Below are positions 5,517 through 46,227 of a stretch of 64,000 nucleotides of DNA, piece after piece. How positions within the stretch are numbered: position 1 is the stretch's first letter; each line of letters opens with the position of its first letter. The DNA is taken from NCBI GenBank assembly GCA_900555615.1, contig USMB01000002.1:33230-97229 (forward strand), written 5' to 3'. The notes beneath the pieces were generated by a model. The model was not told the DNA's origin. It saw nothing but the letters and a program-made list of their open reading frames with translations, and did not search any database. The stretch comes from an uncultured Clostridium sp. Its GTDB lineage: Bacteria > Bacillota > Clostridia > TANB77 > CAG-508. The translations under genes were made by a program, and so were the position numbers.

Positions 5517-5529
5517 AAAAGATTAAAGA

Positions 5530-5909: not shown

Positions 5910-5995
5910 ACAAGTAGTTAAAATTCTAATAATTCACATATTTATTTTATATAGAAAAATCACCCATTAGGTAAGTCTTATTACACAATAAAAAA

Positions 5996-6039: not shown

Positions 6040-6077
6040 TTGCGAGGATGGTGCAGCGGTTAGGCTGCTTTTAATCA

Positions 6078-6338: not shown

Positions 6339-6403
6339 ATAGACTACCTCCTCTAAAATTAAGATACTTCTATTATACTACAAAATTCGACAAAATGCAA
6401 ATA

Positions 6404-9616: not shown

Positions 9617-9750
9617 TATTTTTTGTTATTTTGCTGTAACATAAATGTAATAAAAAAAAAGTATGCCAAATGTTGACTTAATTGAAAATTAAATGATATA
9701 ATAATGTCGAATAAATATGGAAAAAACATGAATAAACAAAAGAGGTGTAT

Positions 9751-11484: not shown

Positions 11485-11494
11485 GAGATTGAAT

Positions 11495-21087: not shown

Positions 21088-21227
21088 AATTGTAAATTGA
21101 AATACAAAAATAGTGGGCTGATTCTAAATAAACAAATTGTAAAATAATGTAAAAATATATTAAAATTTTAAAAGCCTGAAACCTTAGAAATAAACGGGTT
21201 TGAAGTAAAAATAAAAATAAAAGAAAA

Positions 21228-21254
21228 AAGTGCTAAAAATGGCACTTTTTTTTT
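21228..21254 (+). terminator. Rho-independent terminator (part of the giant-gene 1 upstream cassette)
   Basis: aagtgcta-aaaa-tggcactt stem-loop, then nine T's. Confidence 0.7.
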
Positions 21255-21274
21255 GAAAAAAATCGCGAAAATTG

Positions 21275-21303
21275 TTGAAAAAAAACAGTGATTATGATAT
21301 AAA
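21275..21303 (+). promoter_or_regulatory. Putative promoter of giant gene 1
   Basis: TTGAAA(21275-21280), 17-nt spacer, TGaTATAAA(21298-21303). A second TTGAAAAAAA box sits 23 nt upstream. The whole cassette is duplicated upstream of giant gene 2. Confidence 0.5.
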
Positions 21304-21352
21304 TATATAGAGAAAAATATAAGATTTTTGAAGCAAAAGATGGAGGAAAAAC

Positions 21353-30300: not shown

Positions 30301-33300
30301 AAAACCAGAATTAGAAGTAAAAGGTGTAACAATAAATGATGAAGAATCAGATAGTGCCACAGTAAATTTACAAGCAACAGATAAATATTTTAGCACATAT
30401 TATACAACAAACCAAACCGCATCATTTGATAAAACCAAAATATATTTAACAGCTGATGGAGTAAAGGCAACAGAAGAGGAGACAGGTGTTAAATTACAAT
30501 GGGAAAAAGCAAAAGATGTAACAGAAACAAGAAGTGGTGAGAAAAAGGTTATAGGAATTACTCAAAGTGTGACAATAACTGGTATGAAAGATAATTTAGA
30601 TAAAAAATTAAAATTAGTAATAGAAGAAGGTGCATGTCTAGATAATTCAGGTAACCCAAATGAAAGAAAAGAAATATCACTATTTAGTAGATTGATGTCT
30701 GCTTCAACAGAAACAGCAGCAACAAGTACATTCTTAAATAACCCATATGCAATTCAAAGACAAAATGTACAAAGTGTAGAATTTAGAAGTTCTACAACAG
30801 GATTGATTTCAAATTGTGCATGGGATGTTTCTGAAAACCAAGATGGTTCAATAATGGCATGGTATGACGGAACAGGTCCATACAGAGTATATATTGCAGG
30901 TGATGGATTGATATATGCAAATCCAGACTCATCATATTTATTCTCATATGTAGGATATGCAACAAATTGTACAGATACAACAGTTGTAAAGAACCTTAAC
31001 TTATTAAATACAAAATTTGCAACTAAAATGGATGCAATGTTTAATTATACAGGTTATAGGTCAATGACTGGATTAAGTTTAGGAGATAAATTTGATACAA
31101 GCAATGTTACCTCAATGAATAGAATGTTTGACAATTGTGGATATACAAGAATGGGTTCATTGAATTTAGGTACAGCTTTTGATACAACAAAAGTAACTTC
31201 AATGAGTCTGATGTTTAGAAATTGTGGATATACAGCAATGACATCAATGGAACTAGGAACAAAATTTAATACTTCAAAAGTAGAGAATATGACTTCAATG
31301 TTCTATTATACTGGATATACAGCAATGACAACATTAAAATTAGGAAACTACTTCTATACAAAATCTGCAACAAATATGTCTCAAATGTTTAACTATACAG
31401 GTGCTAGTGCGATGACATCATTAGATTTAGGACCAGCATTTACAAAAATAGCAGATACAAATACAAATTTTGCAACAGGTTGTGGTAAAAATGGTTCAGT
31501 AACTATATATGTAGGTTCATCAATTTACTCAACAAAAAATGCATTTAAATTAAGTGCAGATGTAACAACAACAATATCATATGCAAGAGGAACAATAAAT
31601 CCAAAATATAAACCAGATTGGACAAAAGTTTCAACAACATTAAATACAACAGATAAAAATATAACAGTAAAATTACAAGGAAATGTAAATACTGCAAATT
31701 ATACAGGTGATGCTTTAAAATCAGTAATAAATAGATTAGCAATGGGAACAGGTGACAGCTCAAAGATAACAGTAAAAATAGATGGAACAGTTGCAAATAA
31801 TTTAGTAAAAACAGTTCAGACATCTGTAAAAGGACCAGCAAATACGGTTACTGCAGAAATAATAATTTCAAGTTTTGCAGAAACTACAGTCCAAAGTGGA
31901 AAAACATATTTGGAATGGGCAGGAAATATTGCAATACAATTAGCTCAAGGAACATTGACAGATGCATATGGAAACCCAAATTTGGCTCAATTAGATGGAA
32001 GTGCTGTAGAAATAAAAGATGCAACAATAGATAAAAATACAGATGGAAAAATGTTCGCAGATTTTATAAAACCAAAATTAATGTATGAACAATCAAGTGT
32101 AGTAGTAGATAAAACTGGAAAAACAGTTACAATAGTATTTTCAATAACAGATAAATACTATGCTAGTGAAAGCTTAGATGTTTCAAAATTGAGCATAAGA
32201 GTAGATGGTACTGATGTATCAGAAATTCCATCAATAAAGAAAACATTAACAAAATCCACTTCAAGTACAGGTGTAAAATATACATTGGTATTATCAGAAT
32301 TTGAACAGGATTCAATTGCAAGTGGAAAGAGATACTTAGATTACAGTGGTTCTATTACAGTAACAGTGCCAGCAGGAGCTGTGTTAGATAAATCTGGAAA
32401 TGGAAATGTTACAGAAGGATTAGGAATTGGACCACAAAATACAATTGTAAAGGATAATGCATCAAATTTAGCAGAAATAGACTTGGTAAGACCAAGTTGG
32501 CAATTACAACCAAATAAAGGTGTTACATTAGATTTTGCAAGTAAAACAGTAACAATTCCACTAGAAGTAACAGATAAGTATTTTTCAACAAGTACATTAA
32601 CAAATAATATAAAACTTTTAGTAAATGGAGCTGAATCGACATCAGGAGGAACAATTTCAATTCAGTCAGGACCAACAAATATTACTGAAACAAGAGGTGG
32701 AAATACAGTATTAATAGGACATTCTTATACTGTAAAAATAACTAATATTTCAGTAGATTCAGGTCAATTAGGTGTTAGAATTTTAGAAGGAGCAGCATCA
32801 GATACTTCTGGAAATACTAGCTCACAAAAAGACATATTATTATTAAATCGTTTGAAAGAAACAAATACTGAGACAGCAGCGACAAGTGGATTCTTAGGAA
32901 GTGCAAGTAATACTAATGCAACAATAAAAGCGATACAAAGACAAAATATAAATAAGGTTGTATTCGAATCAGGTATTTCAAGTGCTGTTTATAATCACAC
33001 AACAAAAACAATTTCAGATGCTACAAGAGCATGGGATGTATCAAAAGCAGGTGATCAATCAATTGTAGCATGGTTTGTAGATAGCGAAAAATCAAACGGA
33101 ACTTACGTAATTCACATAGGTAGTGAAGGTGGAATTCTTGCAAATACAGATTCAAGTTATTTGTTTGCAAATATAGGAAGTTCTGCAAATTGTAAGTCAA
33201 TAGTAGCAATTGCAAACTTAAGTTTACTAGATGTAAGTACTGTAACAAATATGAATTACATGTTTACAAATACAGGTAAACAAGCAATGACAGAATTAGA

Positions 33301-36300
33301 CTTAGGAACAAACTTTAGTACAAGTAGTGTAACTACAATGGTTGGAATGTTCCAAGGTGCCGGTTATAATGCAATGACGACATTAACCCTTGGAAATCTA
33401 TTTGTAACTACGAAGGTTACGGATATGAACAATATGTTTAATGAAACAGGTTATAAAGCATTAAAGAGTTTGAATTTGAGCACATTTAATACGGCAAGTG
33501 TAACAAATATGCAAAGAATGTTTAGAGCAACAGGACATGATTCAATGACAACATTAACATTAGGAAGTAACTTTAATACCGCAAAAGTAACTAATATGCT
33601 TGGAATGTTTGCAAATTGTGGATATGGTAGTCTAACAGCATTAAACTTAGGTGGAGCATTTGATACAGGAAATGTAACAGATATGAGTTATATGTTCACA
33701 GGTGCAGGACATGATTCAATGACAGGCTTAAATTTAGGAAGTTTATTTAAAACAAGTAAAGTAACAAATATGAGTTATATGTTCCAAAATACAGGTGCAG
33801 GAAAAATGACAACATTGACCTTAGGAAGCAACTTTAATACAAGTGCAGTAACTAACATGAGTTATATGTTTAATGGAACAGGTAGTTCATCAATGCAAAG
33901 CTTAGTTTTAGGTGGATATTTCTATACAAGTAAAGTTACAAATATGACTAGTATGTTTGAAGCTTGTGGTCAAGGAAGTATTAAGACGATAGATTTAGGA
34001 CCAGCATTTACAAATGTGTCTAGTACTAATACAAATATGTTAAAAACATTGAATAATACAAATATTTATACAGGTACAGCAATTTATTCAAATGAGAATG
34101 CAGTAAGATTAAACTTGAACTCAAGTACAACAGTAAGTTTTGAAAGAGGAAAAATTATAGCAAAATATCAACCAGAATGGCAAAAATCTACTACAACTCC
34201 AGATACTGCAAATACAGCAATAACAGTAGTATTAAGAGGAATAGTAAATGCAACAAATTATGCTGGATATAATAAAAACATAACAAATAAATTTGCAAAT
34301 GGAACAACAACACAAATAACAGTAGCAATAGATGGAGAATCAACTCCAAATAGCAGAATTATAAAAACAATAAGTGGTGCTAGTTCAACAGCAGCAGAGA
34401 GTGTTCAATGTAATGTAAGATTAACAGGATTTAATGAAGGATACATATCATCAAAAGGATATAAAGAGTGGAGTGGTAATGTAGCATTAAACATACCGCA
34501 AGGAACCTTAACAGATGCATATGGAAATCCAAATTTAGCTCAAGAAATTAAAGAGGATGCAGTAGAAAAAAATACTGCAGGAGACTTATTCTTGGATTCT
34601 ATAAAACCAGAAATAATATATGAATACTCAGAAACAACAATAAATCATGACAGTCAAACAGTAACTGTTGGATTTAGAGTTACAGATAAATATTTTGCAA
34701 ATACATTGTTAACAGTAGAGCAATTGGCTAGCCAAATAACAGTAAAAGTTGATAGTGAAGCAGTAAATGTTGAAAAAGAAGTAAGAGAAATAAAAGCATT
34801 GAATGAACCAGTAAATGGTCAAAATAGAACAGTTGGAAAGAAATATGAATTGGTAATTAGTAAATTAGACCAAGGTGATGGTATAAGATACAGTGGACCA
34901 ATGCAAATTGTATTTCCAACAGGAATAGTAAAAGATGCATCAAATAATACCAATACAGGAAAAACGATTTCAATTGGTGTGGATGATCCAGTAAATGATG
35001 CAGAACATAAATCAGAGGTTATAGTCGATGTAGTAAAACCAGTATGGTCAGTTGAAAACTTAAAAATTACTCAAGTAAATGGAAAAGCACAAGCAACAAT
35101 GGATTTAATAGGAACAGACAAATACTTAAACAAAACAAATAGTAAAAGCTTAACTCCAAATGAGATAAAAGTTTTTGTAGATGGAGTAGATATTACAAGT
35201 ATAGCAACAGGACTTAGCAAGAGTTTAGCAGGACCTATAGATATAGATAATGGAATAAAATATACACTAACAATTACTAACTTAGAGGAATCTTATGATG
35301 CATTTATTGCAGCAAGAAATGCTAATAAGAGAGTATATAGAGAGTACAGTGGAGATGTAACATTAGAGGTACCTGAAGGAAAATTAGTTGATAACTCAGG
35401 AAATAAAAGTTCAAAACTTTCAGTAAAGGTTGGAATAGTTGATACATTAAAGCCAGAAATAGTAAAAGTTTCATCAACAGTAAATCCAACGGCAAAAACA
35501 GAGACAATAATATTTGATGTTACAGATAAATATTTTGGAACAATATTAGATGAGCAAACACTTCTTTCAAAACTACATGTATTTGTAGATGAAGAAGCAG
35601 CAGATAGTATAACAAAACAAATAACAAATGTTGAAACACTAACAGATACAGTAGATGGAATATCTAAAACAGTTGGAAAGAGATATACATTAGTATTATC
35701 AAACTTTGAAAAAGAAGGACTACAAAGTGGATATGAATTTAAAGGAATAAGTGGAACTGTAAAGGTTACAGTAGATGCAGAAATTGCAACAGACTCTAAC
35801 GGAAATACAAGTAATTCTGCAACATTAGCAGGAGACTTTACAGACTTTATTGAACCAAGTGTGGTTTATAGATTTTCAAAACCAGCAAGTGGAGCAAATT
35901 CTGTAACAATAACATTTGACGTAACAGATAAATATTATAAAAGCGGAGATTTGACATTAGCAGATTTAGCATTAAAAATGCAAAATGGTAAAAATTTAAG
36001 CAATTATATTGATATGAAAACAATATCTGGTGCACAAATTCAATTTGGAACACCTTCAAATGTTACTTGCCCAACAGCAATGAATAAAACCGTAAATGGA
36101 ACAGTTCAAAAAGGATTGACAAATCAAATAATAGGAAGACGTTATACAATAACGATTTCAAATTTAGAGCAAGCACAGATTAAAGATGGAGACCAATACT
36201 TAGAATATAGTGGTAATGTACAAATTGGAGTAGCAAAAGGTAAAGTAAAAGATCAAGGAAATAATACAAATCTTGCACAAACTATTACATTTGGTATAAA

Positions 36301-39300
36301 TTTACCAGAAGGAACAGGAATAAAAGAAGCTCTTGATATAGTAAAACCAATTTGGTCAGTAGAATCACAAACAGTAGACCTAGATAAACAAGAAGCAACA
36401 ATAATTATTAAAGGTACAGATAAATATTTCTCAAAAAGTACATTAACAAATGATACGTTACAATTAATAATGAATGGTTCAAAAGTAACTACAAATGACA
36501 CTGCTTCAGGAAGAACTCTTGAAATAACAGGGCCAAAAGAAATATATGAAGATTGGATAGAAAATGGAGCAACTTCACAACATTTAGTTGGAGTGGAATA
36601 TACAATTATAGCAACAGGATTTGCTGTTGATGAAGGACAAGTAAAAATAAGAATTCCAGAAGCAACCTTAACAGATAATTCAGAAAATAGCAGTAATGCA
36701 TTAGAATTTATGTTATACAGTTGTTTAAAAGCAACTAATACAGAAACATCAGCAACAAGTGGATTCTTAGGAAATACTTCAATTCAAAGACAAAACATAG
36801 AAAGTGTAACATTTGAATCTGGCTTGTCAAAGATGATTAGTAGCACAAAATGGGATGTATCAGCTGGAAATGATGGTTCAATAATGGCATGGTATAAAAC
36901 TGCAGCAAGTGGTGCTCTAGAAGTTTACATTGGAGGAACTACAGCAATATTTGCAAATCCAAATTCAAGTTATTTATTCGCAAATATTGGAACAGCAACA
37001 AAATGTACAGCAACAGAGGTTGTTAAGAATTTAGATTTAGTAACAACTAAAAGAGTAACAAATATGAGTTATATGTTCTTAAATACAGGTACAACAGCAA
37101 TGACAACATTAAATTTAGGCTCAAACTTTAATACAGAAAAAGTAACAAATATGACATCTATGTTTAGTGGCTGTGGAATAAATAAAATGTCAACTCTAAA
37201 CTTAGGTGGTAAATTCTACACAAGCGAAGTAACTCTTATGAATAATATGTTTAGTAGTTGTGGTAGATATGCATTAACAGCATTAGATTTAGGAGAATAT
37301 TTTGATACAAGCAAAGTAACAAATATGGCTGGAATGTTTAATTGTACAGGTTCAAGCCAAATGACAAGCTTTAATATTGGTAAAAAATTCGATACAACTA
37401 ATGTAACAAATATGTCTTATATGTTTAATATGTTAGGAAATGCAAAATTAACAAGTTTAGATTTAGGCGATTTGTTCTATACAACAAATGTAACAAATAT
37501 GGACTCAATGTTCTACAATTGTGGTTCATCTGCAATGACAACAATAGATTTAGGACCAGCATTTACAAAGATTGCTGGAACGAATACAAATTTTGCAATG
37601 AATTTTGGTAAATCTGGAGCAACATTGAATGCACCAGAGGCAATATATCAAGATAGCAAGAATTTCAGATTAGGAATTGAAAGTACAACAACACTAGCAT
37701 ATTCAAGAGGAACAATTACTCCAAAATATAGAACAGAATGGGTAGTAACTACAAAGACTGTTGATAAAACAAATAAAACAGTAAGAATAACATTGAGAGG
37801 AAAAACAAACTCACAATTAACTGTAGCAGAATATCCAGGTGGAGCAAATGGACTTTTAAGTAAGGATAAAGTAACAGTTTTGGTTGATGGAACAAATGTT
37901 AAAGCAGTACAAGATTCTATGGAAATTAGTTCTGCAAACTATATTACAAATTCTTCAACAAACAAGGTTGAAGTTGAACAAATAATAACCTTAAAAGACT
38001 TTGTTGAAGATGCAAGACAAACAGGAAAGAGTTATAAAGAATGGAGTGGAAATATTTCATTAAAAATAGCAAAAGATTCTGGACTAAAAGATGATTATGG
38101 AAGCGAAAATATAGCTCAAGACATAAATGATATAATATTAGCAGATGTAGTAAAGCCAGAATTTACTTATAAATATTCATCAACAGATATTAATTACACA
38201 AATAAAACATTAACAGTTGAATTTGATATAGTAGATAAGTATTTCTTTAGTACAACTTTGAGTGCTACGAATGCAGTAAATAATATTACAGTAAAAATGA
38301 TAGACATTAATGCAGTTCCAGCAAATATTACAAAAACATTGAAAAAGAAAACAATATCTGCAGATCAAACAAGTGGAAGCATTACATATAAAGCAAATGG
38401 AGATATTTATGAAAATTCAAGAAAAATAGGAGAAAGATATACTTTAGTAATTAGTGGATTAGAGCAAGCAAGTAAATCAGCAGATGGAAAATATAAAGAT
38501 TACAGTGGACCAATGAGTGTGGCATTCCCAGCAGGAGTAATAACAGATACATCTGGAAACACAAGTGATCAAATAACAATTACTGTTGGTATAGATGAAC
38601 CAGATAAATCTGGAATGCAAGAAATTGTGGATGTTGTAACACCAATTTGGGAAGCAAAAAGTACTACAATAGATAAATGGAATAAGAGAGCTATTATCCA
38701 ATTACAAGGAACAGATAAATATTATGCAAGTAATAGTTTAGACACTTCAAAAATTACAGTATATGTTGACGGAAAAGAAATCACAAATATTGAAAAAACT
38801 TTAAGTGAATCAACTCCATTAACAGAAACTAGAAATGGCCAAGAGATGCAGTATGGTGTTGAATATACATTAACATTAAGTGGATTTTCAGAGCCAGACA
38901 GTGAGTTTATGACAGCAAGAAAGAATGGAAGTAGAGAATATCGAGAATATAGTGGAAAAACCGAAGTAAAGATTGCGGCAGGAACATTATCAGATGCACA
39001 TAATACAAACAAAGAACAGACAATTTCATTAGGAAATGTTGATTGTTTGAAACCTGATATTATTTATGAAACTTCAAATACAACAATAGATCAAGGAAAC
39101 AAGATTTTAACAGTAGTGTTTGAGGTAACAGATAAATATTATAATGCATCAGCAAGTAGTTTGAAATTATCAGATTTAACAGTTACAGTTGATGAAAAGA
39201 CAATGACATCAGCAGAATTAACAGCAAGTGGAAATTCATTAACAGCAACAGCTTTAGCAAGTGGAAAAGGAACCAAATACACATTAGTAATTAAAAATTT

Positions 39301-42300
39301 ACAACAAAATCCAAATGATGGTGTTGATTACAGTGGTATAGTATCAATTGCAATACCTAGCGGTAAATTTGCAGATACTACAGGTAATACAAATGATGCT
39401 AAAACAATTACTATTGGTGTAGATACACCTACAAATGATGAAAATCATAATACAGGAACAATTGTCGATGTTGTTAGCCCTGTATGGAAAGCAGAAAATT
39501 TTAGAGCAAGTAGTGATAATACTCAAATATTAGTAGACCTTGTAGGAACAGATAAATATTTAGACACATCAAAAACATCTGTTGACCCAAGCAAGATTAA
39601 AGTAGTTATAAACAATCAAGACATAGAGGCAACAGCAGGAATTGCAGTTAATAAGTCTATTGAGTATAAAGGAACAAGAAGTGATATATTAACAGGTGCA
39701 AAAGATGTAATATATACATTAACATTATCAAACTTTAAAGAAAGTGATGAAACTTTCTTAGCAGCAAGAGCGGCAGGAACAAGATTATACAGAGAATATA
39801 GCGGATTTACTCAAATAGAAATGCCAGCAGGTCAATTAAAAGATACGTCAAATAATACAAACGTAAAAACAACATTAGATTTAGGAAACATAGATAGAAT
39901 TCCACCAGAAGTTGTAAAAGTATCTTCAACTGTTGATAAAACTAATAAGAAAGAAACTATAGTATTTGATATAGTAGATAAATATTTAAAAACTTCAACA
40001 TTAGGAACAACTACAACAGAAGCAAATAATAATTTATCAAAATTACATGTATTTGTAGATGATGAAGCAGCAGATAACATAACTAAAAAAATTACAAAAG
40101 TTGAGAAATTAACTGATACAATAGGAACTACAACAAATCAATTAATTGGATATAGATATACATTAGAATTAACTAATTTTGAAAAGAGTAAGAATTCAAA
40201 AGGAGTTAAGGATTGGAGTGGTACTGTAAGAGTTGATGTTGATGCTGCAGTGGCAATAGATACAAATGGAAATACAACTGACGAAACATCAATTGAATGT
40301 GATTTTGTAGACCTTATAAAACCATATCTAGAATATACTCACCAATCATCAGATATAAGTACAACAAACAAAACTTATACAATGAAATTTAGAATAACAG
40401 ATAAATATTATAAATCTGGAAAATTGACATTAAATGATTTAACAGTAAAAATTAAAAATGGTCAATTAAAAAATGGAAGCGAAATTGTTTATAATTTAAG
40501 TGATTTAGCAAAAGCAGGAACAGTTACACTTGCATTAAGTGATACAGAAATCTATGCAAATGACATATATATAACAGATGAAACAACTGGAGAAATAGAT
40601 GTTACTGATAAGAAACTAATTGGGCATGAATATACATTAAAAATGTCAAACTTAGAAAAATTACAGATTGCAGATGGAATGACAACAGCAGATTATAGTG
40701 GTATTATCAGTGTAGGAATAGCTGCAAATAAGGTATTAGATAGAACATATAATGGAAGTAATAATGGAAATACAGCATCAACAATAACTTCAGGTGTTAA
40801 TATTCCTAATGGAAGCGGAAATGGAACGGTTGTGGATGTGGTAGACCCATTAATTACAGGAGTTAGCACAGTAGCTGACCCAACAAAAGGTACAGCAACA
40901 TTAACATTTAGAGCAACAGATTCTTATTTTGCAAGTAGTTCAATATCAGCAGCAAATATACAGATATATGTAAATGGTACACAAAAAGCAGTAGGAGTTG
41001 CTTCAGGGGATGGAATTACAAAAACTCTATCTCAAACTTCAAAGACAGAGTCAAGATTACAAAATGGAACAACTTCAAATGTACAATATGGAATTGAATA
41101 TACATTAAATATTACAGGTTACCCAGCAAATATTAATCAGTTGAGAGTGGTAATTCCAGCAGGATTGGTAGCTGACCAATCAGGCAACCACAATAAAGAG
41201 AAATCATTTAACTTGTTTAATACTTTAGCTACAGCAGAATCAAGTCCAAGTGCAACAACAGCATTTATGGGTAATACATATGGAATTCAAAGAGGAAAGA
41301 TTGCACAAATAGTATTTGAAAGTTATATTGGAGGAACTTCAAGTACACGTTGGGATGTATCTGCACAAAAAGATCAATCTATTATGGCATGGTATAATGC
41401 AAATGAAAAACCAACTAGTGATACATATATTATCCATATAGGTAGTGAAACTTTAATTGGAGCAAATGTAAATTCAAGCAATTGGTTTAGTTATATTGGA
41501 TATGATGCTAATTGCAAGGCAACAAGTGAAGAAAGTGATCCAATTATAAAGAACTTAAAGATAATAAGTGTTGCAAATGTAACAAATATGTCAAACATGT
41601 TTGCATATCTTGGATATAGTAATATGACTACATTTAGTTTAAGCAGTAATTTCTATACAACTAGTGCAACAAATATGAGCGGAATGTTCAAATATGCGGG
41701 ATTTACAAAAATGACAACAATAAACTTAGGTTCAAACTTTAATACAAGTAAGGTAACCAATATGAATGCTATGTTTAATCATACAGGATATACTGCAATG
41801 ACTGGTCTAAATTTAGGTTCAGCATTCTATACAAGCAAAGTAACAAATATGGGGTCTATGTTTGGAGAAACAGGATATACTGCAATGACAAGTTTAAATT
41901 TAGGCACAAATTTTGATACTAGTGCAGTAACTTCTATGAGTTGGATGTTTAGCAACTGTGGACATGACAAGATGACAAGTTTAACATTAGGTGCTAACTT
42001 TAATACAAGTTTAGTAACAACAATGCAAGGAATGTTTAATGGGACAGGAAATAAATTATTAACAAGCTTAGACTTAGGAGATTTATTCTACACAACAAAT
42101 GTAGAAAATATGACAAATATGTTTAGTAACTGTGGTACAGGTGCAATGACATCACTTGACTTAGGACCAGCATTTACAAAGATTGCATCAACAAATACTG
42201 AATTTGCAACGAATTTAGGAAAATCAGGTTTTGTTGCCTATGTACCAGAAGCGATTTACCAAGATTCTACTCACTTTAGAATAGGTGGAGCAGGTTCAAC

Positions 42301-45300
42301 AGCAATTGCATGTACAAGTGGAAGAACGATAAATCCAAAATATAGAACAGAATGGGTAGTAGAAACAACAGCATTTAATACAACTAATAAAACTTTAGCA
42401 ATAACATTAAGAGGTAGAACAAATTCACAAGTAACAGCAAGTGAGTACAAGAGTGATGTAAGTGGAGGAATTACAGATAAAACTAAAGTAGAATTCTACA
42501 TGAACATTGGTGGTACATTAACAAAAATGTCTAATGTATCAATAAGCTTAGGAACAGCAAGTCAAACAACACAAAATGTATCTAAAGGAACAAAAGAAGT
42601 ATTACAAACAATAACAATTGGAAACTTAGAAGAAACTGCAAGACAATCTGGAAAATTATATAAGGAATACAGTGGAAATATTGTTGTTAAAGTACTTCAA
42701 GATTCTGGATTGAAAGATTCTTATGGTAATGGAAGTCAAAATATTGCTCAAAATGTTTCAACATCAGATGTAGACAAAAATACAACAGGAAAGCTATTTG
42801 CAGACTTTATAAAACCAGAATTCAATTATTTATCATCAGAAACAACAATAAATCATAATACAAAAACAGTTACAATATTGTTCAGTGTAAGAGATAAATA
42901 TTTTAGTACTTCAGGATTAACAGCAGATACAACAGCATCTAAAATTTCAGTAACAGTTGCTGATGAAGATGTAAATAGTAAGATAACTAAGAAATTAGAA
43001 ATTGTTGAAGAAGAAAAAGATGTAATAAATGGAAAGAACCAAAAAGTTGGAGAAAAATACAGATTAACAATAACAGGTTTAGACCATAATGATGGAACTC
43101 ATTACAGTGGAATAATGCAATTAGGATTTGCAAAAGATCTAGTAGCAGACTTATCTGGAAATAAAAATGATGCACAAACAATAACAATAGGAGTAGATAC
43201 ACCAAATGGATCAGGCTCTGGAAGTATAGTCGATGTAGTAGACCCAGTATGGAATACACAAAACTTTACAATAGATAAGACAAACAAAAAGATAACTGTA
43301 GACTTAATAGGAACAGATAAGTATTATTTAAGCAATAGCTTAACAACAGACAAGATTAAAGTTTTTGTAGATGGAAAAGAAGCATCAAGCATAACAAAAC
43401 AACTAAGTGCTAGTTCTTCAGTTACAAATGGTGTAAAATATACCTTAACTCTTTCTGGATGGGAAGAAGCAAGTGAACAAACAGGAAATATATATAAAGA
43501 GTGGAGTGGTATAACAAAGATTCAAATAGCAGCAGGAACATTAACAGATAAATATACTAATACAAGTAAACAACAAGAATTTACATTAGGACATGTGGAC
43601 TTTATAAAACCAGTAATTAAAAAAGTATCTTCAACAAAGAATTCAACAAATGGTACAGAAACAATATTATTTAATGTAATTGATAAATATTTAGATACAA
43701 CAAGTACATTATCAGCAAATGATATTACAGTTTATGTAGATAAAGTTGAGGCAACAGGATTAAGCAAGACATTAACAAAAACTTCAACACAATTTACAGC
43801 ATCAATCAATGGAAGTACACAAGTTGTAGGACAACAATATCAATTAGTATTGTCAGGATTTAAACAAGCTCGTTCAAGTATTGATTCTGCAAAGAATTAT
43901 ACAGAGTGGAGTGGAACTGTTTCAATAGATGTTGCAGCTGGAAAGATAAAAGACAAAATAGTTAGTCCAAATACAACTGCAAATACAAACAACAAAACTA
44001 CAATATATGGTGATTTCGTAGACTTTATAAAACCAGAAATTACTTATAAATATGCATCTTCAGATATCAATTATACAAATAAAACATTTACAATGGACTT
44101 CGAAATTACAGATAAATACTTTAACAGTATTACAGAATTGACAACTCAAAATATAACACAATATGTAACAATAAAAGTTGATGGGGTAGACATAACAAAT
44201 AATACAGCAATTACAAAAGAAATTATTTCTACAACAAATGTAACAGCTGGAACAACTGCAAAACCAATCAATAAGACTGTTAATGGGACAGTTCAAACTG
44301 GATTGACAAATCAAGTAATAGGAAGACATTATAAATTGAGAATATCTGGATTGCAACAAGCAATAAAAACAGGAAATACATTAGATTATAGTGGTGTTAT
44401 AACAGTTGCATTTAAAGAAGGAATTGCAACAGATACAACAACAAATAAAAATGCAGCAACAACAATAACTTCAGGAGTTAACTTACCAGGTGGTTCTGGC
44501 TCAGGAACAATAGTCGATGTTGTTGACCCAATGTGGGAACAAATCGGTAGAGCAAGCGTAGAAGCTGGTAAGGGAACAGCAAGTATGGTAATCAGAGGAA
44601 CTGATAAATACTTGAATAAAGTAACTAGTGCATTAACATCTGGAAAAATAACAGTAACAGTAAATGGAACAACTCCAACAACAACAGTAACAGTAAATGT
44701 ACAAGAAGATACTTCAATATCAGAGACATGGGCAAAACAATATAAAGTAACACTTACAGGATTTGATCCAAAGGCTTATCAGGTAGCATTTAAGATACCT
44801 GCAGGAGTGTTGGTTGATAGTTCTGGAAATACAAGTAAAGAAAAAGAATTTATCTTGTTTAGCAGTTTAAAGAAAACTGATACTGAAACAGCATCAACAA
44901 GTTTATTCTTAGGAATTACAGGAGTTCAAAGACAAAATGTTGAACAAGTAATATTTGAAGAATATATTGATGATTCAAAGACATTGTTTGATGTATCAGC
45001 AGCTCAAAATAGAACAATAATGGCTTGGTATGAAAAAACTTCAAGAAATACTTACATTGTTCATATAGGAAGTACAATAATAATAAATGGAAATGCAGAT
45101 TCAACAAACTTATTTAATTATGTTGGATATAGTACAAATTGTGCGGTTACAAACGAAACATCTAATAAGATAATAAAGAATATTGAATTATTACATGTAG
45201 ACAATGTAACAAATATGAAGAATATGTTCGCATATTTAGGCTATGGTAAAATGCAAACATTTAGCTTAGGAAGTGCATTTGATACAACAAATGCAACAGA

Positions 45301-45919
45301 TATGAGCGGAATGTTCCAATATACTGGATTTACAGCAATGACAAGTATAAACTTAGGAGGAAACTTTAATACAGCAAGTGTAACAAAGATGAATTCTATG
45401 TTTGACCATACAGGATATACTGCAATGACAGGATTGAATTTAGGCGGTAAGTTTAATACAGCTAAAGTAACAGAAATGAGTTCAATGTTTGCAGACACAG
45501 GATATACAAAGATGACAACATTAAACTTAGGCGGAGAATTTAGTACAGTAAAAGTAACTAAAATGGATTGGATGTTCAAAAATTGTGGACATGAAGCATT
45601 AACCGCATTAAACTTAGGAACTAAATTTAATACAAGTATAGTACAAACAATGGAAGGAATGTTTAATGCAACAGGATATAAAGCTATGGTAAGTTTGGAT
45701 TTGGGTGATAACTTCTATACATCAACAGTAACTAACATGGATAATATGTTTAATTCAACAGGTGCAGTGTCAATGATGGCATTGGATATGGGATCAAACT
45801 TTAAGAAGATAGCAGCTAAACATGCAAACTTTGCTACTAACTGCGGAAAGAAAGATGTTGTAATATATGCTCCAGAGGTAATATATTCAACACAAACTTC
45901 TTTCAAATTAGGGATATAG
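21353..45919 (+). CDS. Giant modular cell-surface protein (8,188 aa): signal anchor, ~17 tandem Ig-like ~100-aa repeats, multiple TDKYF-type beta-sandwich domains and six DUF285/BspA-like LRR-type repeat blocks
   Basis: One uninterrupted 24,567-nt ORF in the track. RBS GGAGG. N-terminal hydrophobic anchor. Repeat structure described in the findings. No LPXTG or C-terminal TM. Confidence 0.85.
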   Translation: MLKNKIIVKKIRNILILFMAILIMIGAYHNVRRSRAENVIEISMEVADKNNSLEKQTVTIDATETKNGVYLAELPTSVNGNRVTKYYTSDGEELEIDPASVEKITLELTEDELANKKISLGTEYDKKTAIIDDVETTLYNKEFINEDGDVIVTGYMPLDIQLDFTEIDANALKDIRLPSDDLTVKKSFGISIQEMIDVSKTTDKAETDDTTKTDGKNQVNDTTGLAENAQTNETEKQLIEYDSTKYGEDITIKIKQADSKEETVIYSFSDGTPVTEVVYTNTDGILSFLKNDNDKFIYTVKKQETTDNVASEEQVVDDTQDSDAVQIDEDTTTSDDSTIVNRPNNGPKKAQARAGSKVATLDTIWSHGESLGNGLNNAQNSNFFGLVPRGKISSITLLTSDGKDSSGNKINFDVSGAQSQSIATGGSVILYCIPNGSTYKAYMLPGSDVGTIKFNSDSKFIFSYLGYESSCTETEVVKGFFDSSSIVDTSGITQARAMFAHIGRNGSMRTLTIGPKFTTTSIKDTQDMFYECGFSNMTTLKFSSNFKLENATNLLSMFYRCGYNKLTSLDLSNMTTANATSMEHMFNMCGNQSLTSLKIGFNTSKVTNMHAMFANCGTEKLTTFSLGNNFNTSNVTDMGYMFEKFGGPLTELKLGSNFSTSKVTNMQGMFSQTGTKSMKKIQLGDKFTSIASGNYSDFLNNTGASGCKIYVPGAIYSNKHAVKLSTSSSTTISYTKGYIVGPDNAAPTWADNVNGAKYSATDHTYTMNLVGSDAVALDAEASTLTKGSTIKVKIGNSETSNYTLGATSLSSDENTKTFPLTINNYTGGAITITISAGTLIDLRENKSAAKTYNIASVDGTAPKWSSSVSGGTYSGTDKTYTLSLVGTDETSLDDSESKLTRGSNITVKVNNTSTSNYTLGNTTLSSDGRTKTFPLTISSYSGGTIVITITKGALVDRNGNTEASGATYTIRPNVDTTAPKWSSNVTNGSYSSTGHTYSLTITGTDETQLQSNKLSTFNTTVQVNGSKVTNLDFAQPVLSSDKKTITIKLTIKNYTGGKITIKIASGALIDATGNADTKGATYEFTPNTDVTAPKWNSSVNNATYSSSANTYTFEVVGTDETSLKTGLTLNASNAPITVNGSTASVTYGSGQYSNSNKTVTFKITVRNYSGGKIVMNIKAGALQDNGNPVNSSVAQNYTMDPQTDFTAPVWNGSINNGKLSGSTYTLNLIGTDETKLQQTTLSTSNVSVTVGGKSASFSFSNRGQGQLSNNNKTITFGMTISNFTGGNVTITINAGALKDTEGNLSVKQTYSFSVDGTAPKWNSSVTGGTYSSTAHTYTVKLIGTDETKLNDSMSALSSSNVTIKINGTPISTFSFKSSISSDYKTKTFTLTITNYTGGKITIQIDEGALVDTAGNKEANGAKYEFTPNIDSVVPAWKTSISGGTYSSTNHTYSFSLVGTDETALNNSASVLNYDNMLVTVNGTKVTRSNLVFGSTSISSDNKTKTFPITINGFTGGAVVITINSGALSDMTGNKSSEISYKFTIDGTLPVWSNAINGGTYDENAKTYTFKLVGSDETGIQQTTLSSSNVTVTMGGKTANVTFSNGGKGTINDKTITFELTINSFVGGQINISISAGALKDTSNNLSVAKTYSFSKDVTPPTWDSKITSTSYKNSIYTVNVTGTDETALNNSSSTLSSSNVTVTVNGTAVSASNLTFSGQLASDSKSKAFAIGIKSFTGGEIKIVINPGALTDTSGNKEKTGATYNLTADITPPAWGNATGKYNPDDQSYTITVTGTDDIELNTSASALTTSNSTLTVGGTAVTPTITKTASTSKSVTYEIKISKHTGGAISFKINAGALKDAQNNTSAEKTYTFAAVDAVKPTWASNISGGTYSNGTYSFSVVGSDETKLDTSKSVLSSSNFSVTTSGNAVSSSDITFGSPTLSSDGKTKTFPITIKNFKGGQVNITIAEKALYDTTGNWSVSKTYSFYKDITPPVWDDSIQNPLYNHSTKGYYFELVGTDETKLNTSSSTLTTSNVKITVGGTNTTNFTLGTATTSSDSKTKTFPITLNSYTGGEIIITVSAGALKDTAGNSSAVKEYKITPDITKPVWSYQNLTYDPDSMTYSVELVGTDETALNTNVSTLISTGSSKNLLVTCGGTSVTPTLEKTSTTSTKIIYKLTINDYPGGAVAITISEGALIDTSSNRSDHKVINLPEKDRTKPTLKVQNNNYSDDSGQYTFEVVATDETAIDTTRSNLAPNGSSKNITVKCGNTTIVPSITSRNTSDGKSIIYTVTISEYPGGTVSVAIDAGAIYDTTGNKSNSASFTLPAADVQKPQWADSAEFSYDENNSTVSITLTGTDDVGLNDSKSVLNLSTNLVIYNNGAVVSSENIKLGTPTISQDKLTKKFPITLNNFAGGTTSIAISKGALVDNSGKTSDAKTYNFTDMIKPKWYMDGNGSYNTKSKEYTITLDARDDTEIKTVNLTTSTMTVTVGGTAVTPTITQVTDGIQEKRYTITIPNYTGGTINITLNAGTIVDTAGNASIQTPFSVTPDVTAPLWKAGSAGYVNATTSDDVTIELLGTDTKMLATSNLTKQDLIVKYGDTIIDYDKINLSEVTYTNDGKGGVKYVLTLQEYTGEVVSVFLPAGTLTDQAGNTSVDTTLAIESILPPEDTDVPTVSGTQVKVDNLSQVIYITFDITDMSFDYTHHLTAEDFEVTKTYKVRNGYWGTKEETVTITPTIEIVRETRLTGKKGYRYKIKLTNVDITTTPLWGIGGTQSNPATIKVYLNKDAMLDRLSKGNEKTLLMNQQVTFESSTTDAAISLRSAIVNNTDDDKNLTIQLTVNKSNSWWGTFFFIPGIYGSTATNKKLSTDNIYDLRFDGVSVGDSSAIDITVEELTSSSTTTGGGFWWNQGTTTTTAVYRIILSNLEEALRQNLKSYKEWSGCVELDIGPSSDTIYTVRNEDEDLEGFEYKNTQDILFVDVIKPELEVKGVTINDEESDSATVNLQATDKYFSTYYTTNQTASFDKTKIYLTADGVKATEEETGVKLQWEKAKDVTETRSGEKKVIGITQSVTITGMKDNLDKKLKLVIEEGACLDNSGNPNERKEISLFSRLMSASTETAATSTFLNNPYAIQRQNVQSVEFRSSTTGLISNCAWDVSENQDGSIMAWYDGTGPYRVYIAGDGLIYANPDSSYLFSYVGYATNCTDTTVVKNLNLLNTKFATKMDAMFNYTGYRSMTGLSLGDKFDTSNVTSMNRMFDNCGYTRMGSLNLGTAFDTTKVTSMSLMFRNCGYTAMTSMELGTKFNTSKVENMTSMFYYTGYTAMTTLKLGNYFYTKSATNMSQMFNYTGASAMTSLDLGPAFTKIADTNTNFATGCGKNGSVTIYVGSSIYSTKNAFKLSADVTTTISYARGTINPKYKPDWTKVSTTLNTTDKNITVKLQGNVNTANYTGDALKSVINRLAMGTGDSSKITVKIDGTVANNLVKTVQTSVKGPANTVTAEIIISSFAETTVQSGKTYLEWAGNIAIQLAQGTLTDAYGNPNLAQLDGSAVEIKDATIDKNTDGKMFADFIKPKLMYEQSSVVVDKTGKTVTIVFSITDKYYASESLDVSKLSIRVDGTDVSEIPSIKKTLTKSTSSTGVKYTLVLSEFEQDSIASGKRYLDYSGSITVTVPAGAVLDKSGNGNVTEGLGIGPQNTIVKDNASNLAEIDLVRPSWQLQPNKGVTLDFASKTVTIPLEVTDKYFSTSTLTNNIKLLVNGAESTSGGTISIQSGPTNITETRGGNTVLIGHSYTVKITNISVDSGQLGVRILEGAASDTSGNTSSQKDILLLNRLKETNTETAATSGFLGSASNTNATIKAIQRQNINKVVFESGISSAVYNHTTKTISDATRAWDVSKAGDQSIVAWFVDSEKSNGTYVIHIGSEGGILANTDSSYLFANIGSSANCKSIVAIANLSLLDVSTVTNMNYMFTNTGKQAMTELDLGTNFSTSSVTTMVGMFQGAGYNAMTTLTLGNLFVTTKVTDMNNMFNETGYKALKSLNLSTFNTASVTNMQRMFRATGHDSMTTLTLGSNFNTAKVTNMLGMFANCGYGSLTALNLGGAFDTGNVTDMSYMFTGAGHDSMTGLNLGSLFKTSKVTNMSYMFQNTGAGKMTTLTLGSNFNTSAVTNMSYMFNGTGSSSMQSLVLGGYFYTSKVTNMTSMFEACGQGSIKTIDLGPAFTNVSSTNTNMLKTLNNTNIYTGTAIYSNENAVRLNLNSSTTVSFERGKIIAKYQPEWQKSTTTPDTANTAITVVLRGIVNATNYAGYNKNITNKFANGTTTQITVAIDGESTPNSRIIKTISGASSTAAESVQCNVRLTGFNEGYISSKGYKEWSGNVALNIPQGTLTDAYGNPNLAQEIKEDAVEKNTAGDLFLDSIKPEIIYEYSETTINHDSQTVTVGFRVTDKYFANTLLTVEQLASQITVKVDSEAVNVEKEVREIKALNEPVNGQNRTVGKKYELVISKLDQGDGIRYSGPMQIVFPTGIVKDASNNTNTGKTISIGVDDPVNDAEHKSEVIVDVVKPVWSVENLKITQVNGKAQATMDLIGTDKYLNKTNSKSLTPNEIKVFVDGVDITSIATGLSKSLAGPIDIDNGIKYTLTITNLEESYDAFIAARNANKRVYREYSGDVTLEVPEGKLVDNSGNKSSKLSVKVGIVDTLKPEIVKVSSTVNPTAKTETIIFDVTDKYFGTILDEQTLLSKLHVFVDEEAADSITKQITNVETLTDTVDGISKTVGKRYTLVLSNFEKEGLQSGYEFKGISGTVKVTVDAEIATDSNGNTSNSATLAGDFTDFIEPSVVYRFSKPASGANSVTITFDVTDKYYKSGDLTLADLALKMQNGKNLSNYIDMKTISGAQIQFGTPSNVTCPTAMNKTVNGTVQKGLTNQIIGRRYTITISNLEQAQIKDGDQYLEYSGNVQIGVAKGKVKDQGNNTNLAQTITFGINLPEGTGIKEALDIVKPIWSVESQTVDLDKQEATIIIKGTDKYFSKSTLTNDTLQLIMNGSKVTTNDTASGRTLEITGPKEIYEDWIENGATSQHLVGVEYTIIATGFAVDEGQVKIRIPEATLTDNSENSSNALEFMLYSCLKATNTETSATSGFLGNTSIQRQNIESVTFESGLSKMISSTKWDVSAGNDGSIMAWYKTAASGALEVYIGGTTAIFANPNSSYLFANIGTATKCTATEVVKNLDLVTTKRVTNMSYMFLNTGTTAMTTLNLGSNFNTEKVTNMTSMFSGCGINKMSTLNLGGKFYTSEVTLMNNMFSSCGRYALTALDLGEYFDTSKVTNMAGMFNCTGSSQMTSFNIGKKFDTTNVTNMSYMFNMLGNAKLTSLDLGDLFYTTNVTNMDSMFYNCGSSAMTTIDLGPAFTKIAGTNTNFAMNFGKSGATLNAPEAIYQDSKNFRLGIESTTTLAYSRGTITPKYRTEWVVTTKTVDKTNKTVRITLRGKTNSQLTVAEYPGGANGLLSKDKVTVLVDGTNVKAVQDSMEISSANYITNSSTNKVEVEQIITLKDFVEDARQTGKSYKEWSGNISLKIAKDSGLKDDYGSENIAQDINDIILADVVKPEFTYKYSSTDINYTNKTLTVEFDIVDKYFFSTTLSATNAVNNITVKMIDINAVPANITKTLKKKTISADQTSGSITYKANGDIYENSRKIGERYTLVISGLEQASKSADGKYKDYSGPMSVAFPAGVITDTSGNTSDQITITVGIDEPDKSGMQEIVDVVTPIWEAKSTTIDKWNKRAIIQLQGTDKYYASNSLDTSKITVYVDGKEITNIEKTLSESTPLTETRNGQEMQYGVEYTLTLSGFSEPDSEFMTARKNGSREYREYSGKTEVKIAAGTLSDAHNTNKEQTISLGNVDCLKPDIIYETSNTTIDQGNKILTVVFEVTDKYYNASASSLKLSDLTVTVDEKTMTSAELTASGNSLTATALASGKGTKYTLVIKNLQQNPNDGVDYSGIVSIAIPSGKFADTTGNTNDAKTITIGVDTPTNDENHNTGTIVDVVSPVWKAENFRASSDNTQILVDLVGTDKYLDTSKTSVDPSKIKVVINNQDIEATAGIAVNKSIEYKGTRSDILTGAKDVIYTLTLSNFKESDETFLAARAAGTRLYREYSGFTQIEMPAGQLKDTSNNTNVKTTLDLGNIDRIPPEVVKVSSTVDKTNKKETIVFDIVDKYLKTSTLGTTTTEANNNLSKLHVFVDDEAADNITKKITKVEKLTDTIGTTTNQLIGYRYTLELTNFEKSKNSKGVKDWSGTVRVDVDAAVAIDTNGNTTDETSIECDFVDLIKPYLEYTHQSSDISTTNKTYTMKFRITDKYYKSGKLTLNDLTVKIKNGQLKNGSEIVYNLSDLAKAGTVTLALSDTEIYANDIYITDETTGEIDVTDKKLIGHEYTLKMSNLEKLQIADGMTTADYSGIISVGIAANKVLDRTYNGSNNGNTASTITSGVNIPNGSGNGTVVDVVDPLITGVSTVADPTKGTATLTFRATDSYFASSSISAANIQIYVNGTQKAVGVASGDGITKTLSQTSKTESRLQNGTTSNVQYGIEYTLNITGYPANINQLRVVIPAGLVADQSGNHNKEKSFNLFNTLATAESSPSATTAFMGNTYGIQRGKIAQIVFESYIGGTSSTRWDVSAQKDQSIMAWYNANEKPTSDTYIIHIGSETLIGANVNSSNWFSYIGYDANCKATSEESDPIIKNLKIISVANVTNMSNMFAYLGYSNMTTFSLSSNFYTTSATNMSGMFKYAGFTKMTTINLGSNFNTSKVTNMNAMFNHTGYTAMTGLNLGSAFYTSKVTNMGSMFGETGYTAMTSLNLGTNFDTSAVTSMSWMFSNCGHDKMTSLTLGANFNTSLVTTMQGMFNGTGNKLLTSLDLGDLFYTTNVENMTNMFSNCGTGAMTSLDLGPAFTKIASTNTEFATNLGKSGFVAYVPEAIYQDSTHFRIGGAGSTAIACTSGRTINPKYRTEWVVETTAFNTTNKTLAITLRGRTNSQVTASEYKSDVSGGITDKTKVEFYMNIGGTLTKMSNVSISLGTASQTTQNVSKGTKEVLQTITIGNLEETARQSGKLYKEYSGNIVVKVLQDSGLKDSYGNGSQNIAQNVSTSDVDKNTTGKLFADFIKPEFNYLSSETTINHNTKTVTILFSVRDKYFSTSGLTADTTASKISVTVADEDVNSKITKKLEIVEEEKDVINGKNQKVGEKYRLTITGLDHNDGTHYSGIMQLGFAKDLVADLSGNKNDAQTITIGVDTPNGSGSGSIVDVVDPVWNTQNFTIDKTNKKITVDLIGTDKYYLSNSLTTDKIKVFVDGKEASSITKQLSASSSVTNGVKYTLTLSGWEEASEQTGNIYKEWSGITKIQIAAGTLTDKYTNTSKQQEFTLGHVDFIKPVIKKVSSTKNSTNGTETILFNVIDKYLDTTSTLSANDITVYVDKVEATGLSKTLTKTSTQFTASINGSTQVVGQQYQLVLSGFKQARSSIDSAKNYTEWSGTVSIDVAAGKIKDKIVSPNTTANTNNKTTIYGDFVDFIKPEITYKYASSDINYTNKTFTMDFEITDKYFNSITELTTQNITQYVTIKVDGVDITNNTAITKEIISTTNVTAGTTAKPINKTVNGTVQTGLTNQVIGRHYKLRISGLQQAIKTGNTLDYSGVITVAFKEGIATDTTTNKNAATTITSGVNLPGGSGSGTIVDVVDPMWEQIGRASVEAGKGTASMVIRGTDKYLNKVTSALTSGKITVTVNGTTPTTTVTVNVQEDTSISETWAKQYKVTLTGFDPKAYQVAFKIPAGVLVDSSGNTSKEKEFILFSSLKKTDTETASTSLFLGITGVQRQNVEQVIFEEYIDDSKTLFDVSAAQNRTIMAWYEKTSRNTYIVHIGSTIIINGNADSTNLFNYVGYSTNCAVTNETSNKIIKNIELLHVDNVTNMKNMFAYLGYGKMQTFSLGSAFDTTNATDMSGMFQYTGFTAMTSINLGGNFNTASVTKMNSMFDHTGYTAMTGLNLGGKFNTAKVTEMSSMFADTGYTKMTTLNLGGEFSTVKVTKMDWMFKNCGHEALTALNLGTKFNTSIVQTMEGMFNATGYKAMVSLDLGDNFYTSTVTNMDNMFNSTGAVSMMALDMGSNFKKIAAKHANFATNCGKKDVVIYAPEVIYSTQTSFKLGI
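22930..23420 (+). repeat. DUF285/BspA-like ~26-aa repeat block 1 of giant gene 1
   Basis: Iterated ...MF..CG...LTSLDLSNFNTSNVTNM..MF... units. Confidence 0.55.
23590..29350 (+). repeat. Tandem array of ~17 Ig-like ~100-aa repeats (coding, giant gene 1)
   Basis: Each unit follows [A/K/P]P.W...V.GGTYS...HTYT..LVGTDET.L...S.L..SNVTV.VNGT.....F....LSSD.KTKTF.LTI..YTGG.I.I.I..GAL.D..GN. Confidence 0.6.
31000..31500 (+). repeat. DUF285/BspA-like repeat block 2 (giant gene 1), preceded by a WDVS...SIMAWY lead-in
   Basis: Same ~26-aa periodicity, ending ...LDLGPAFTKIADTNTNFATGCGKNG. Confidence 0.55.
33230..34040 (+). repeat. DUF285/BspA-like repeat block 3 (giant gene 1)
   Basis: As above, about 10 units. 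Confidence 0.55.
37040..37620 (+). repeat. DUF285/BspA-like repeat block 4 (giant gene 1)
   Basis: As above. Confidence 0.55.
41560..42230 (+). repeat. DUF285/BspA-like repeat block 5 (giant gene 1)
   Basis: As above. Confidence 0.55.
45190..45860 (+). repeat. DUF285/BspA-like repeat block 6 (giant gene 1, C-terminal)
   Basis: As above. The protein ends 20 aa after the block. Confidence 0.55.
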
Positions 45920-45942
45920 TTTATATAACTAATGCTGAGAGG

Positions 45943-45979
45943 GAGCGGAAAACTTTTAAAGAGTTTTCTGCTCTTTTTT
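45943..45979 (+). terminator. Strong rho-independent terminator of giant gene 1
   Basis: 12-bp stem gagcggaaaact/agttttctgctc (one G-U pair), 7-nt loop, then TTTTTT. Confidence 0.75.
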
Positions 45980-46227
45980 ATTGCTGTTTAACTAATTTTT
46001 ATAAAATATACAATAATTGTAAAAAAACTCTTGCTAAATAGAGTAAGACGTGTTATATTAATAATGTACTTGAATTTAGTACAAAACAACTTAGTGTTTA
46101 CACAAAATAAATTTTTGATTTTTTCAGTAATTTTATTCAATTCTAACTGAAGAAAAAATAAGGAAAATAAAGACGTAAAACAGTGGTAAAAAAGCTTGAA
46201 AAATAAATAGAAAAAAACTTAGAAAAA

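Follow-up and report, generated by a model that had tools for sequence, protein, structure and literature searches.

Iterated immunoglobulin-like and DUF285/PARCEL repeat modules in a giant, probably adhesive protein of uncultured gut Clostridia

The window analysed here, a stretch of 64,000 nucleotides (30% G+C) from an uncultured Clostridium sp. (contig USMB01000002.1, assembly GCA_900555615.1), contains two adjacent genes for giant repetitive proteins, gene 1 and its paralogue gene 2, the second of which is still open at the end of the window (Table 1). The gene 1 product is Thr/Ser/Asn-rich (14% Thr, 10% Ser), carries near its N-terminus a hydrophobic motif that is conserved in many relatives, and ends in ...VIYAPEVIYSTQTSFKLGI immediately after its last leucine-rich repeat (LRR) block. 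The original prediction, made from the sequence alone, had flagged positions 30830-45860, a span in frame with gene 1 that corresponds to amino acids (aa) 3160-8170. Recurring super-modules were described there, in which beta-sandwich domains marked by the motif TDKYF precede a lead-in segment and a block of DUF285/BspA-like repeats. The quoted motifs are indeed present and recur in the order given, and the flagged span of gene 1 goes through five such cycles.

Sub-types of the sandwich domain were delineated by clustering of BLAST scores, type E was split by position into E1 and E2, and hidden Markov models (HMMs) were then made for the sub-types. These models read a regular succession of sandwiches in front of the LRR blocks, so that the modules are colinear on self-comparison, with an order more regular than had been described. 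Gene 1 reads cap-LRR0, N-terminal array, (A,B)-C-LRR1, D-E1-C-LRR2, D-E1-F-G-E2-C-LRR3, D-E1-F-E1-F-G-E2-C-LRR4, D-E1-F-G-E2-C-LRR5. The super-module has a strict order, D-E1-F-G-E2-C followed by an N-terminal cap (N-cap), 5-9 LRR turns and a C-terminal cap (C-cap). Each DUF285 block of the flagged span (5/5) opens with IQRQN...WDVS...S(I/V)MAWY; the closing motif is LDLGPAFT... in blocks 1-4 and LDMGSNFKKIA in block 5, and RGTI.PKY(R/K)(T/P)(E/D)W...L(R/Q)G follows blocks 1-4. The lead-in and closing segments proved to be real, conserved parts of the LRR unit, and they accompany the LRR array in other contexts. A uniform module length of about 4 kb was not borne out, the measured values being 2.6, 3.6, 4.6 and 3.6 kb, and position 30830, where the flagged span starts, falls within the first lead-in, the first module starting at about 29363-30278. 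DUF285 blocks are also found beyond the five originally noticed: a sixth, with five units spaced at 27-29 aa, near the N-terminus of gene 1, and three more in gene 2.

Table 1. Features of the giant-gene locus, in positions of the window; letters denote sub-types of the sandwich domain.
Feature	Position	Strand	Remarks
Gene 1 upstream region, conserved	21220-21352	+	Hairpin with T-run, then TTGAAA...TATGATATAAAT promoter-like element, ribosome-binding site
Gene 1	21353-45919	+	Single open reading frame (ORF), 8,188 aa, 881 kDa
N-terminal hydrophobic signal or anchor of gene 1	about 21380-21436		MLKNKIIVKKIRNILILFMAILIMIGAY
LRR0, sixth lead-in and DUF285 block	22550-23572	+	aa 400-740; outside flagged span; DUF285 53.4 bits; lead-in HMM match
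N-terminal array	23573-29380	+	aa 741-2676; 17 shorter (~115 aa) beta-sandwich repeats
Module 1 sandwiches	29363-30724	+	aa 2671-3124; divergent A, B and C-type
LRR1	30725-31603	+	aa 3125-3417; lead-in cap, 5 units of 29 aa, closing cap
Module 2 sandwiches	31604-32884	+	aa 3418-3844; D-E1-C
LRR2	32885-34150	+	aa 3845-4266; cap, 9 units, cap
Module 3 sandwiches	34151-36757	+	aa 4267-5135; D-E1-F-G-E2-C (canonical order)
LRR3	36758-37714	+	aa 5136-5454; cap, 6 units, cap
Module 4 sandwiches	37715-41254	+	aa 5455-6634; D-E1-F-E1-F-G-E2-C, internal E1-F duplication
LRR4	41255-42328	+	aa 6635-6992; cap, 7 units, cap
Module 5 sandwiches	42329-44899	+	aa 6993-7849; D-E1-F-G-E2-C
LRR5	44900-45916	+	aa 7850-8188; cap, 7 units, cap; gene 1 C-terminus
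Terminator-like hairpin	45936-45980		3' of gene 1
Gene 2 counterpart of the gene 1 upstream region	46215-46354		
Gene 2	46355 to beyond 64000	+	>5,880 aa; paralogue of gene 1; open at window end
Gene 2 LRR blocks	49307-50611, 53270-54469, 57614-58936	+	Three canonical modules
Gene 2 LamG-like insert	56648-57202	+	Third module
Gene 2 tail	58937-62884	+	D-E1-H-E1-H-H-E1-.., then non-repeat C-terminal region

As predicted, the repeat belongs to DUF285 (PF03382), for which the Pfam gathering cut-off of 25 bits was far exceeded: the two halves of the flagged span scored 215.6 and 112 bits, the N-terminal block of gene 1 53.4 bits, and gene 2 184.1 and 107.1 bits. The NCBIfam model TIGR02167 (Liste_lipo_26, currently titled "PARCEL repeat-containing surface protein"; cut-off 30 bits) also matched, with 92.8 bits at aa 3160-5659 and a borderline 30.3 bits at aa 5660-8188. 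The likening to BspA-type LRRs stood in part: NCBI names relatives (P0292, P0295) "BspA family leucine-rich repeat surface protein", but LRR_5 (PF13306) gave no match at E <= 0.01 anywhere in gene 1 or gene 2. PF13306, like PF13855 and PF12799, does co-match many relatives of the LRR block, and at least 4,963 matches to the block alone mark its family as very large.

First put at about 26 aa, the repeat has a period of 29 aa, the value of almost every spacing among 65 units, and instead of 8-12 copies the successive blocks hold 5, 9, 6, 7 and 7 clear units, plus one degenerate unit in the lead-in. In the unit consensus, VTNMxxMFxxTGxxAMTxLDLGxNFxTSK, positions 4, 7, 8, 12 and 25 are invariant and positions 5, 6, 9, 10, 13 and 14 are hypervariable (>2.9 bits). 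It contains an LRR core of the LxxLxLxxN(F) type (M16-T-x-L19-x-L21-G-x-N24-F25). Relatives of the block fall into two unit-length classes, of 26 and of 29/30 residues. Since both classes occur, and since the canonical PARCEL unit is of 25/26 residues (25 in Roske et al. 2010, PMC2996958), the 29-residue unit is by sequence comparison a length variant inside the PARCEL/TIGR02167 family and not its canonical unit.

An HMM iterated from one TDKYF domain retrieved 26 domains in gene 1 (aa 2671-7849) and 28 in gene 2, with E values of 1e-16 to 1e-46. Like the DUF285 scores, these values go well past anything expected by chance. These domains measure 125-178 aa and not about 110 aa as first estimated. 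In its first iteration, built on TDKYF-type domains only, the HMM matched all 17 copies of the N-terminal array (i-E 1e-7 to 2e-2), which reached E ~1e-22 after iteration. The array had been taken for a separate kind of immunoglobulin-like (Ig-like) domain; it is instead a distant relative of the TDKYF domain, and because the first-iteration profile already detects its 17 repeats, the two probably form one superfamily. No Pfam family matched the sandwich at E <= 0.01 on the whole proteins of gene 1 and gene 2. When 53 single sandwiches were compared with Pfam (E <= 1), no consistent family was obtained, the weak matches being two to Big_12, two to Cadherin-like and one to TIG. At curated thresholds the TDKYF sandwich is, as judged from these profiles, outside the curated Ig-like families.

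We used AlphaFold2 to model the C-LRR3-D segment (605 aa) from an alignment of 7 paralogous rows. The model has a predicted local distance difference test score (pLDDT) of 88.8 and a predicted template modelling score (pTM) of 0.83. The lead-in is modelled as a small four-strand cap (IQRQN, VTFES, IMAWY, EVYIG), and the array as a succession of three-residue strands, one every 29 residues, with no helices and a pLDDT of 90-98. These strands, at model residues 263-265, 292-294, 321-323, 350-352, 379-381 and 408-410, sit on the L-x-L of the LxxLxLxxN(F)-type motif, and with such a core and one strand per turn the predicted head has the characters of an LRR solenoid. The closing segment forms short strands, after which RGTI.PKYRTEW opens the D sandwich as its first strand. 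For a model of three domains the pTM is high, which suggests that the C-LRR-D junctions are fixed and rigid. A second model, of the E1 domain of module 3 (34580-35017; 53 paralogues), gave a pLDDT of 86.1 and a pTM of 0.79, with seven strands and one short helix, in agreement with the proposal that the TDKYF units are all-beta sandwiches. Ig-type domains came top when this model was submitted to Foldseek, yet with template modelling (TM) scores of 0.3-0.4 and E >= 0.009. In the original description of PARCEL repeats (PMC2996958), amphipathic helices were predicted and no 3-D model was given, whereas the array modelled here is helix-free. Ours would be the first model to show a DUF285/PARCEL array with confidence, as a solenoid free of helices, and would correct that helical prediction.

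The order of the domains is conserved in relatives. A word-indexed search with the D...C segment of module 5 returned 36 proteins, all metagenomic and all with the same order. When 1.84 billion cluster representatives were searched exhaustively with a profile, 896 proteins were obtained at E <= 1e-3 and 138 at E <= 1e-30, mostly of 2,000-7,740 aa; the C-to-lead-in junction was present in 63 of the 141 top proteins. In a scan of 185,579 species genomes, full C-LRR-D matches were found at 34-46% identity in about 15 metagenome-assembled genomes (MAGs), labelled uncultured Clostridia, Clostridium sp. 28_12, MGYG-HGUT-00421 or Eubacteriales. The canonical cycle is repeated in their loci, which often comprise two giant ORFs in tandem and have a gene-2-type tail in common. 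Among 151 relatives we counted 158 transitions from C to lead-in, 129 from LRR to D, 143 from D to E1, 146 from E1 to F, 121 from F to G, 108 from G to E2 and 116 from E2 to C, with 62 complete canonical cycles. The homologue search thus did find relatives with the same domain order, and only in uncultured gut Clostridia. The suggestion that the architecture is undescribed also appears to hold: these relatives are all unnamed metagenomic proteins, the sandwich is without a Pfam family, and full-text literature searches returned no description of the architecture.

The caps also travel with the array outside the giant proteins. In P0183, P0251 and other relatives of about 450-560 aa, the lead-in, a 29/30-residue array and the closing segment are fused C-terminally to a type IV prepilin N-terminus (PF07963). 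These fusions show the cap-LRR-cap to be a portable unit, and its place on a pilin N-terminus is one typical of a binding tip. The only PDB matches of the profile of one alignment (A3) were to pilins, and are explained by two pilin-fused relatives in that alignment. In related MAGs, some giant ORFs (L005, 2695-9054; L012, 1370-14107) carry five to seven tandem cap-LRR-cap units and no sandwich spacers.

Paralogous modules share at most 78% DNA identity and 20-50% protein identity, except for one stretch of 444 nt that is 92.6% identical between the E1 domain of module 5 in gene 1 (42797-43240) and the E1 domain of module 2 in gene 2 (51107-51550). Against a background that is elsewhere 76% identical or less, the stretch indicates recent gene conversion between the two genes. 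P0041, a strain variant compared with positions 33287-45916 of the window, has an overall identity of 84%, distributed as a mosaic: its last ~1,700 aa are 94-100% identical and its modules 3-4 only 56-86%. This mosaicism therefore points to recombination at roughly the scale of the module.

With moderate confidence, we interpret the gene 1 product as a secreted or surface fibre of spacers and LRR heads acting as a multivalent adhesin, a function that we infer from its architecture. Conservation of the domain order in relatives makes such a role, as a very long adhesin with many heads, probable. The protein would be exported via its conserved hydrophobic N-terminus, and its Thr/Ser/Asn-rich composition fits with export. 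The fibre would be built of two kinds of domain only, Ig-like sandwiches serving as rigid spacers and capped DUF285/PARCEL solenoids of 29-residue turns serving as binding heads. The super-module would be both the functional and the evolutionary unit, with a C-type sandwich always docked on the N-cap and a D-type sandwich always growing from the C-cap. Six heads on the gene 1 chain and three on the neighbouring paralogue, differing at exposed variable turn positions, would make the system multivalent and probably multi-specific, and could attach to host mucus, other cells or gut particles. Modules duplicate, gain or lose domains, and recombine inside either gene, across the two genes and across strains. 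Ig-like domains are about 4-5 nm long per sandwich, so that 43 sandwiches, together with six heads, would give a fibre of about 0.2 micrometres. Pfam and NCBIfam scans of gene 1 and gene 2 detected no enzymatic or toxin domain. Binding by a DUF285 protein has a precedent in MbovP0145 of Mycoplasma bovis, which binds beta-actin, a host protein (PMC8707762), and PARCEL proteins have been described as variable surface lipoproteins or antigens (PMC2996958).

Several observations weigh against this adhesin interpretation. No LPXTG, SLH, cell-wall-binding or LysM motif was found in gene 1 or in full-length gene-2-type relatives; in the latter, Pfam detected DUF285 alone and no anchor, and their C-termini read ...KSFIVE or similar, with no sortase LPXTG end. 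At E <= 1e-3 Foldseek matched neither an LRR protein nor anything else of solved structure, and searches of the PDB by sequence and by profile gave no matches for the LRR block or the sandwich profile, so that the folds rest on AlphaFold and on Pfam membership. When P0041 was compared with the window, some spacers were more diverged than the heads, and the hypervariable LRR positions were 84.5% conserved as against 90.1% for the others. Because these positions are only slightly less conserved, we do not claim diversifying selection focused on the heads.

The repeats of gene 1 resemble those of DUF285/PARCEL proteins such as the Mycoplasma LppQ-type and the Listeria "26-residue repeat" lipoproteins in their VTxMxxMF pattern and variable hydrophilic positions, and those proteins are likewise exported. 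In contrast to PARCEL arrays, those described here have their own N-cap (IQRQN..WDVS..SIMAWY..SSYLF) and C-cap (LDLGPAFTKIA...IY....F(K/R)L), and are iterated six times in one chain with 3-8 sandwiches between them. The name that NCBI gives to close relatives of the LRR block is that of BspA from Tannerella forsythia. BspA is a surface binding protein that combines LRR and Ig-like domains, as proposed for gene 1, but it has a single LRR region in about 1,100 aa, against six heads in 8,188 aa here. Listeria internalins follow the same logic, with an N-cap, an LRR solenoid, a beta-sandwich packed on its C-terminal end (the D domain in our model) and then spacers. The differences lie in the turns, of 29 residues here and 22 in internalins, in the iteration of the unit, and in the lack of an LPXTG or GW anchor here; internalin structures gave no sequence or Foldseek match to gene 1 domains. 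The giant Ig-like adhesins (SiiE, Ebh, LapA, MpIBP-type RTX) are likewise huge, extended proteins in which tandem Ig-like sandwiches make up most of the chain and hold the binding regions away from the cell. Their ligand-binding domains are gathered at one end, whereas here heads of the same format are set at regular intervals over the full length of the fibre. The best reading is that of a variant of the giant multivalent surface adhesin, whose novelty is the iteration of a whole head-plus-stalk unit six times in one chain.

The surroundings of the giants raise another possibility. Upstream of both genes, about 130 nt are conserved. The stems of the upstream hairpins differ by compensatory changes (AGTGC...GCACT versus AGCACCAA...TTGGTGCT), and are followed by GTTGAAAAAAA, 17 nt, TATGATATAAAT and a GGAGGA ribosome-binding site. 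This conservation, together with the compensatory changes, suggests shared regulation of gene 1 and gene 2. The window genes that precede the giants are of housekeeping and sporulation types (SerRS, a U32 peptidase, a Mur ligase, SipL and YunB). Such chromosomal neighbours led us to reject a phage or mobile-element origin of the giant genes. Because they follow sporulation genes and no anchor was found, the giants might be structural components of the envelope or spore surface (a sheath, an S-layer-like coat or exosporium filaments), in which the LRR blocks would mediate self-assembly between fibres; we regard this as unlikely. Their place directly downstream of SipL and YunB, and of SpoVG on a European Nucleotide Archive (ENA) scaffold, and the absence of an anchor motif from gene 1 and gene-2-type proteins are in its favour, and the shared upstream regulatory region would be consistent with co-produced partners. 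However, the promoter-like element (TTGAAA, 17 nt, TGATATAAT) resembles by eye a housekeeping sigma-70 extended -10 promoter and has no obvious likeness to a sporulation-sigma consensus. Furthermore, the adjacency to sporulation genes may be incidental, and the cap-LRR-cap units found elsewhere on pilin N-termini point to external ligands.

Mosaicism makes it possible to view the giants as an antigenically variable decoy or shield against phages or host immunoglobulin A, specific binding being secondary. Strain identity that ranges from 56 to 100% by module, the recent gene 1-gene 2 conversion and a length polymorphism (8,299 aa on the ENA scaffold, L001, versus 8,188 aa here) would all fit such a role, as would the description of PARCEL proteins as variable surface antigens (PMC2996958). 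We hold it to be improbable nonetheless: between species that share 34-46% identity, the domain order and the caps are strictly kept, which argues for a constraint beyond surface variation, and no switching machinery (invertase, silent cassettes) was seen in the window. An assembly artefact, with collapsed or chimeric repeats, could be suspected from the metagenomic source and from the many database relatives that are fragments starting and ending inside LRR blocks; it is extremely improbable, because modules at most 78% identical in DNA (apart from the 444-nt exception) and 20-50% in protein are too diverged for assemblers to confuse, the reading frame is open over 24.6 kb, and ORFs of 3,000-7,700 aa with this layout are found again both in assemblies made independently and in about 15 species-level MAGs.

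Returning to the adhesin interpretation, we put forward one extension of it tentatively. The super-module could be a self-contained, recombination-competent cassette within a combinatorial system, in which the swapping of heads would produce programmable multi-specific fibres. If true, these fibres would be a bacterial counterpart of a modular receptor repertoire: heads of different specificity would be duplicated, swapped between adjacent giant genes and exchanged between strains, by means of a sandwich family and a capped 29-residue LRR sub-type that have neither a solved structure nor a library entry. The analysis of the giant proteins itself reveals no new mechanism and settles no open question; it provides candidates for domain libraries, namely an unannotated Ig-like family, a capped 29-residue DUF285 sub-type and a strict module grammar. 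Two adjacent genes that together exceed 40 kb represent a large investment, and surface proteins of such size usually determine the sites and targets of bacterial attachment. The neighbouring SerRS belongs to a 99%-identity cluster of 194 metagenomic members, a size that marks the host lineage as a common, uncultured human-gut lineage. A protein identical to a neighbour of the giant genes was found on human-gut metagenome contigs (ERR414343/PRJEB5224) and on the 66-kb ENA scaffold.

The LamG-like insert of gene 2 comprises about 185 aa between the E2 and C sandwiches of the third module. It matched Laminin_G_3 (concanavalin-like lectin) weakly, with E 2e-4 and 21.9 bits, under the cut-off of 27.6, and PF13385 is also carried by some relatives. 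Further downstream in gene 2 (62885-64000), (I/V)(Y/F)GG(G/S) repeats about 20 residues apart look like a beta-helix, as they do in P0053, P0062, P0064 and P0044. In gene-2-type proteins this GG-repeat region is followed by about 900 aa without Pfam match or LPXTG.

On every contig found, gene 1 is immediately preceded by two conserved genes without Pfam match (18377-19597 and 19825-21087). One of them codes for a protein of 406 aa whose N-terminal hydrophobic segment ends in YAWFST, which we take to be akin to SipW/TasA-type signals; the other encodes a Lys/Glu-rich protein of 420 aa. Also in the window, at 9745-13192, a protein that combines a type I dockerin with an SH3_3 domain precedes one that has three cadherin-like sandwich domains; this pair hints that the same organism has a surface system of the cohesin-dockerin kind.

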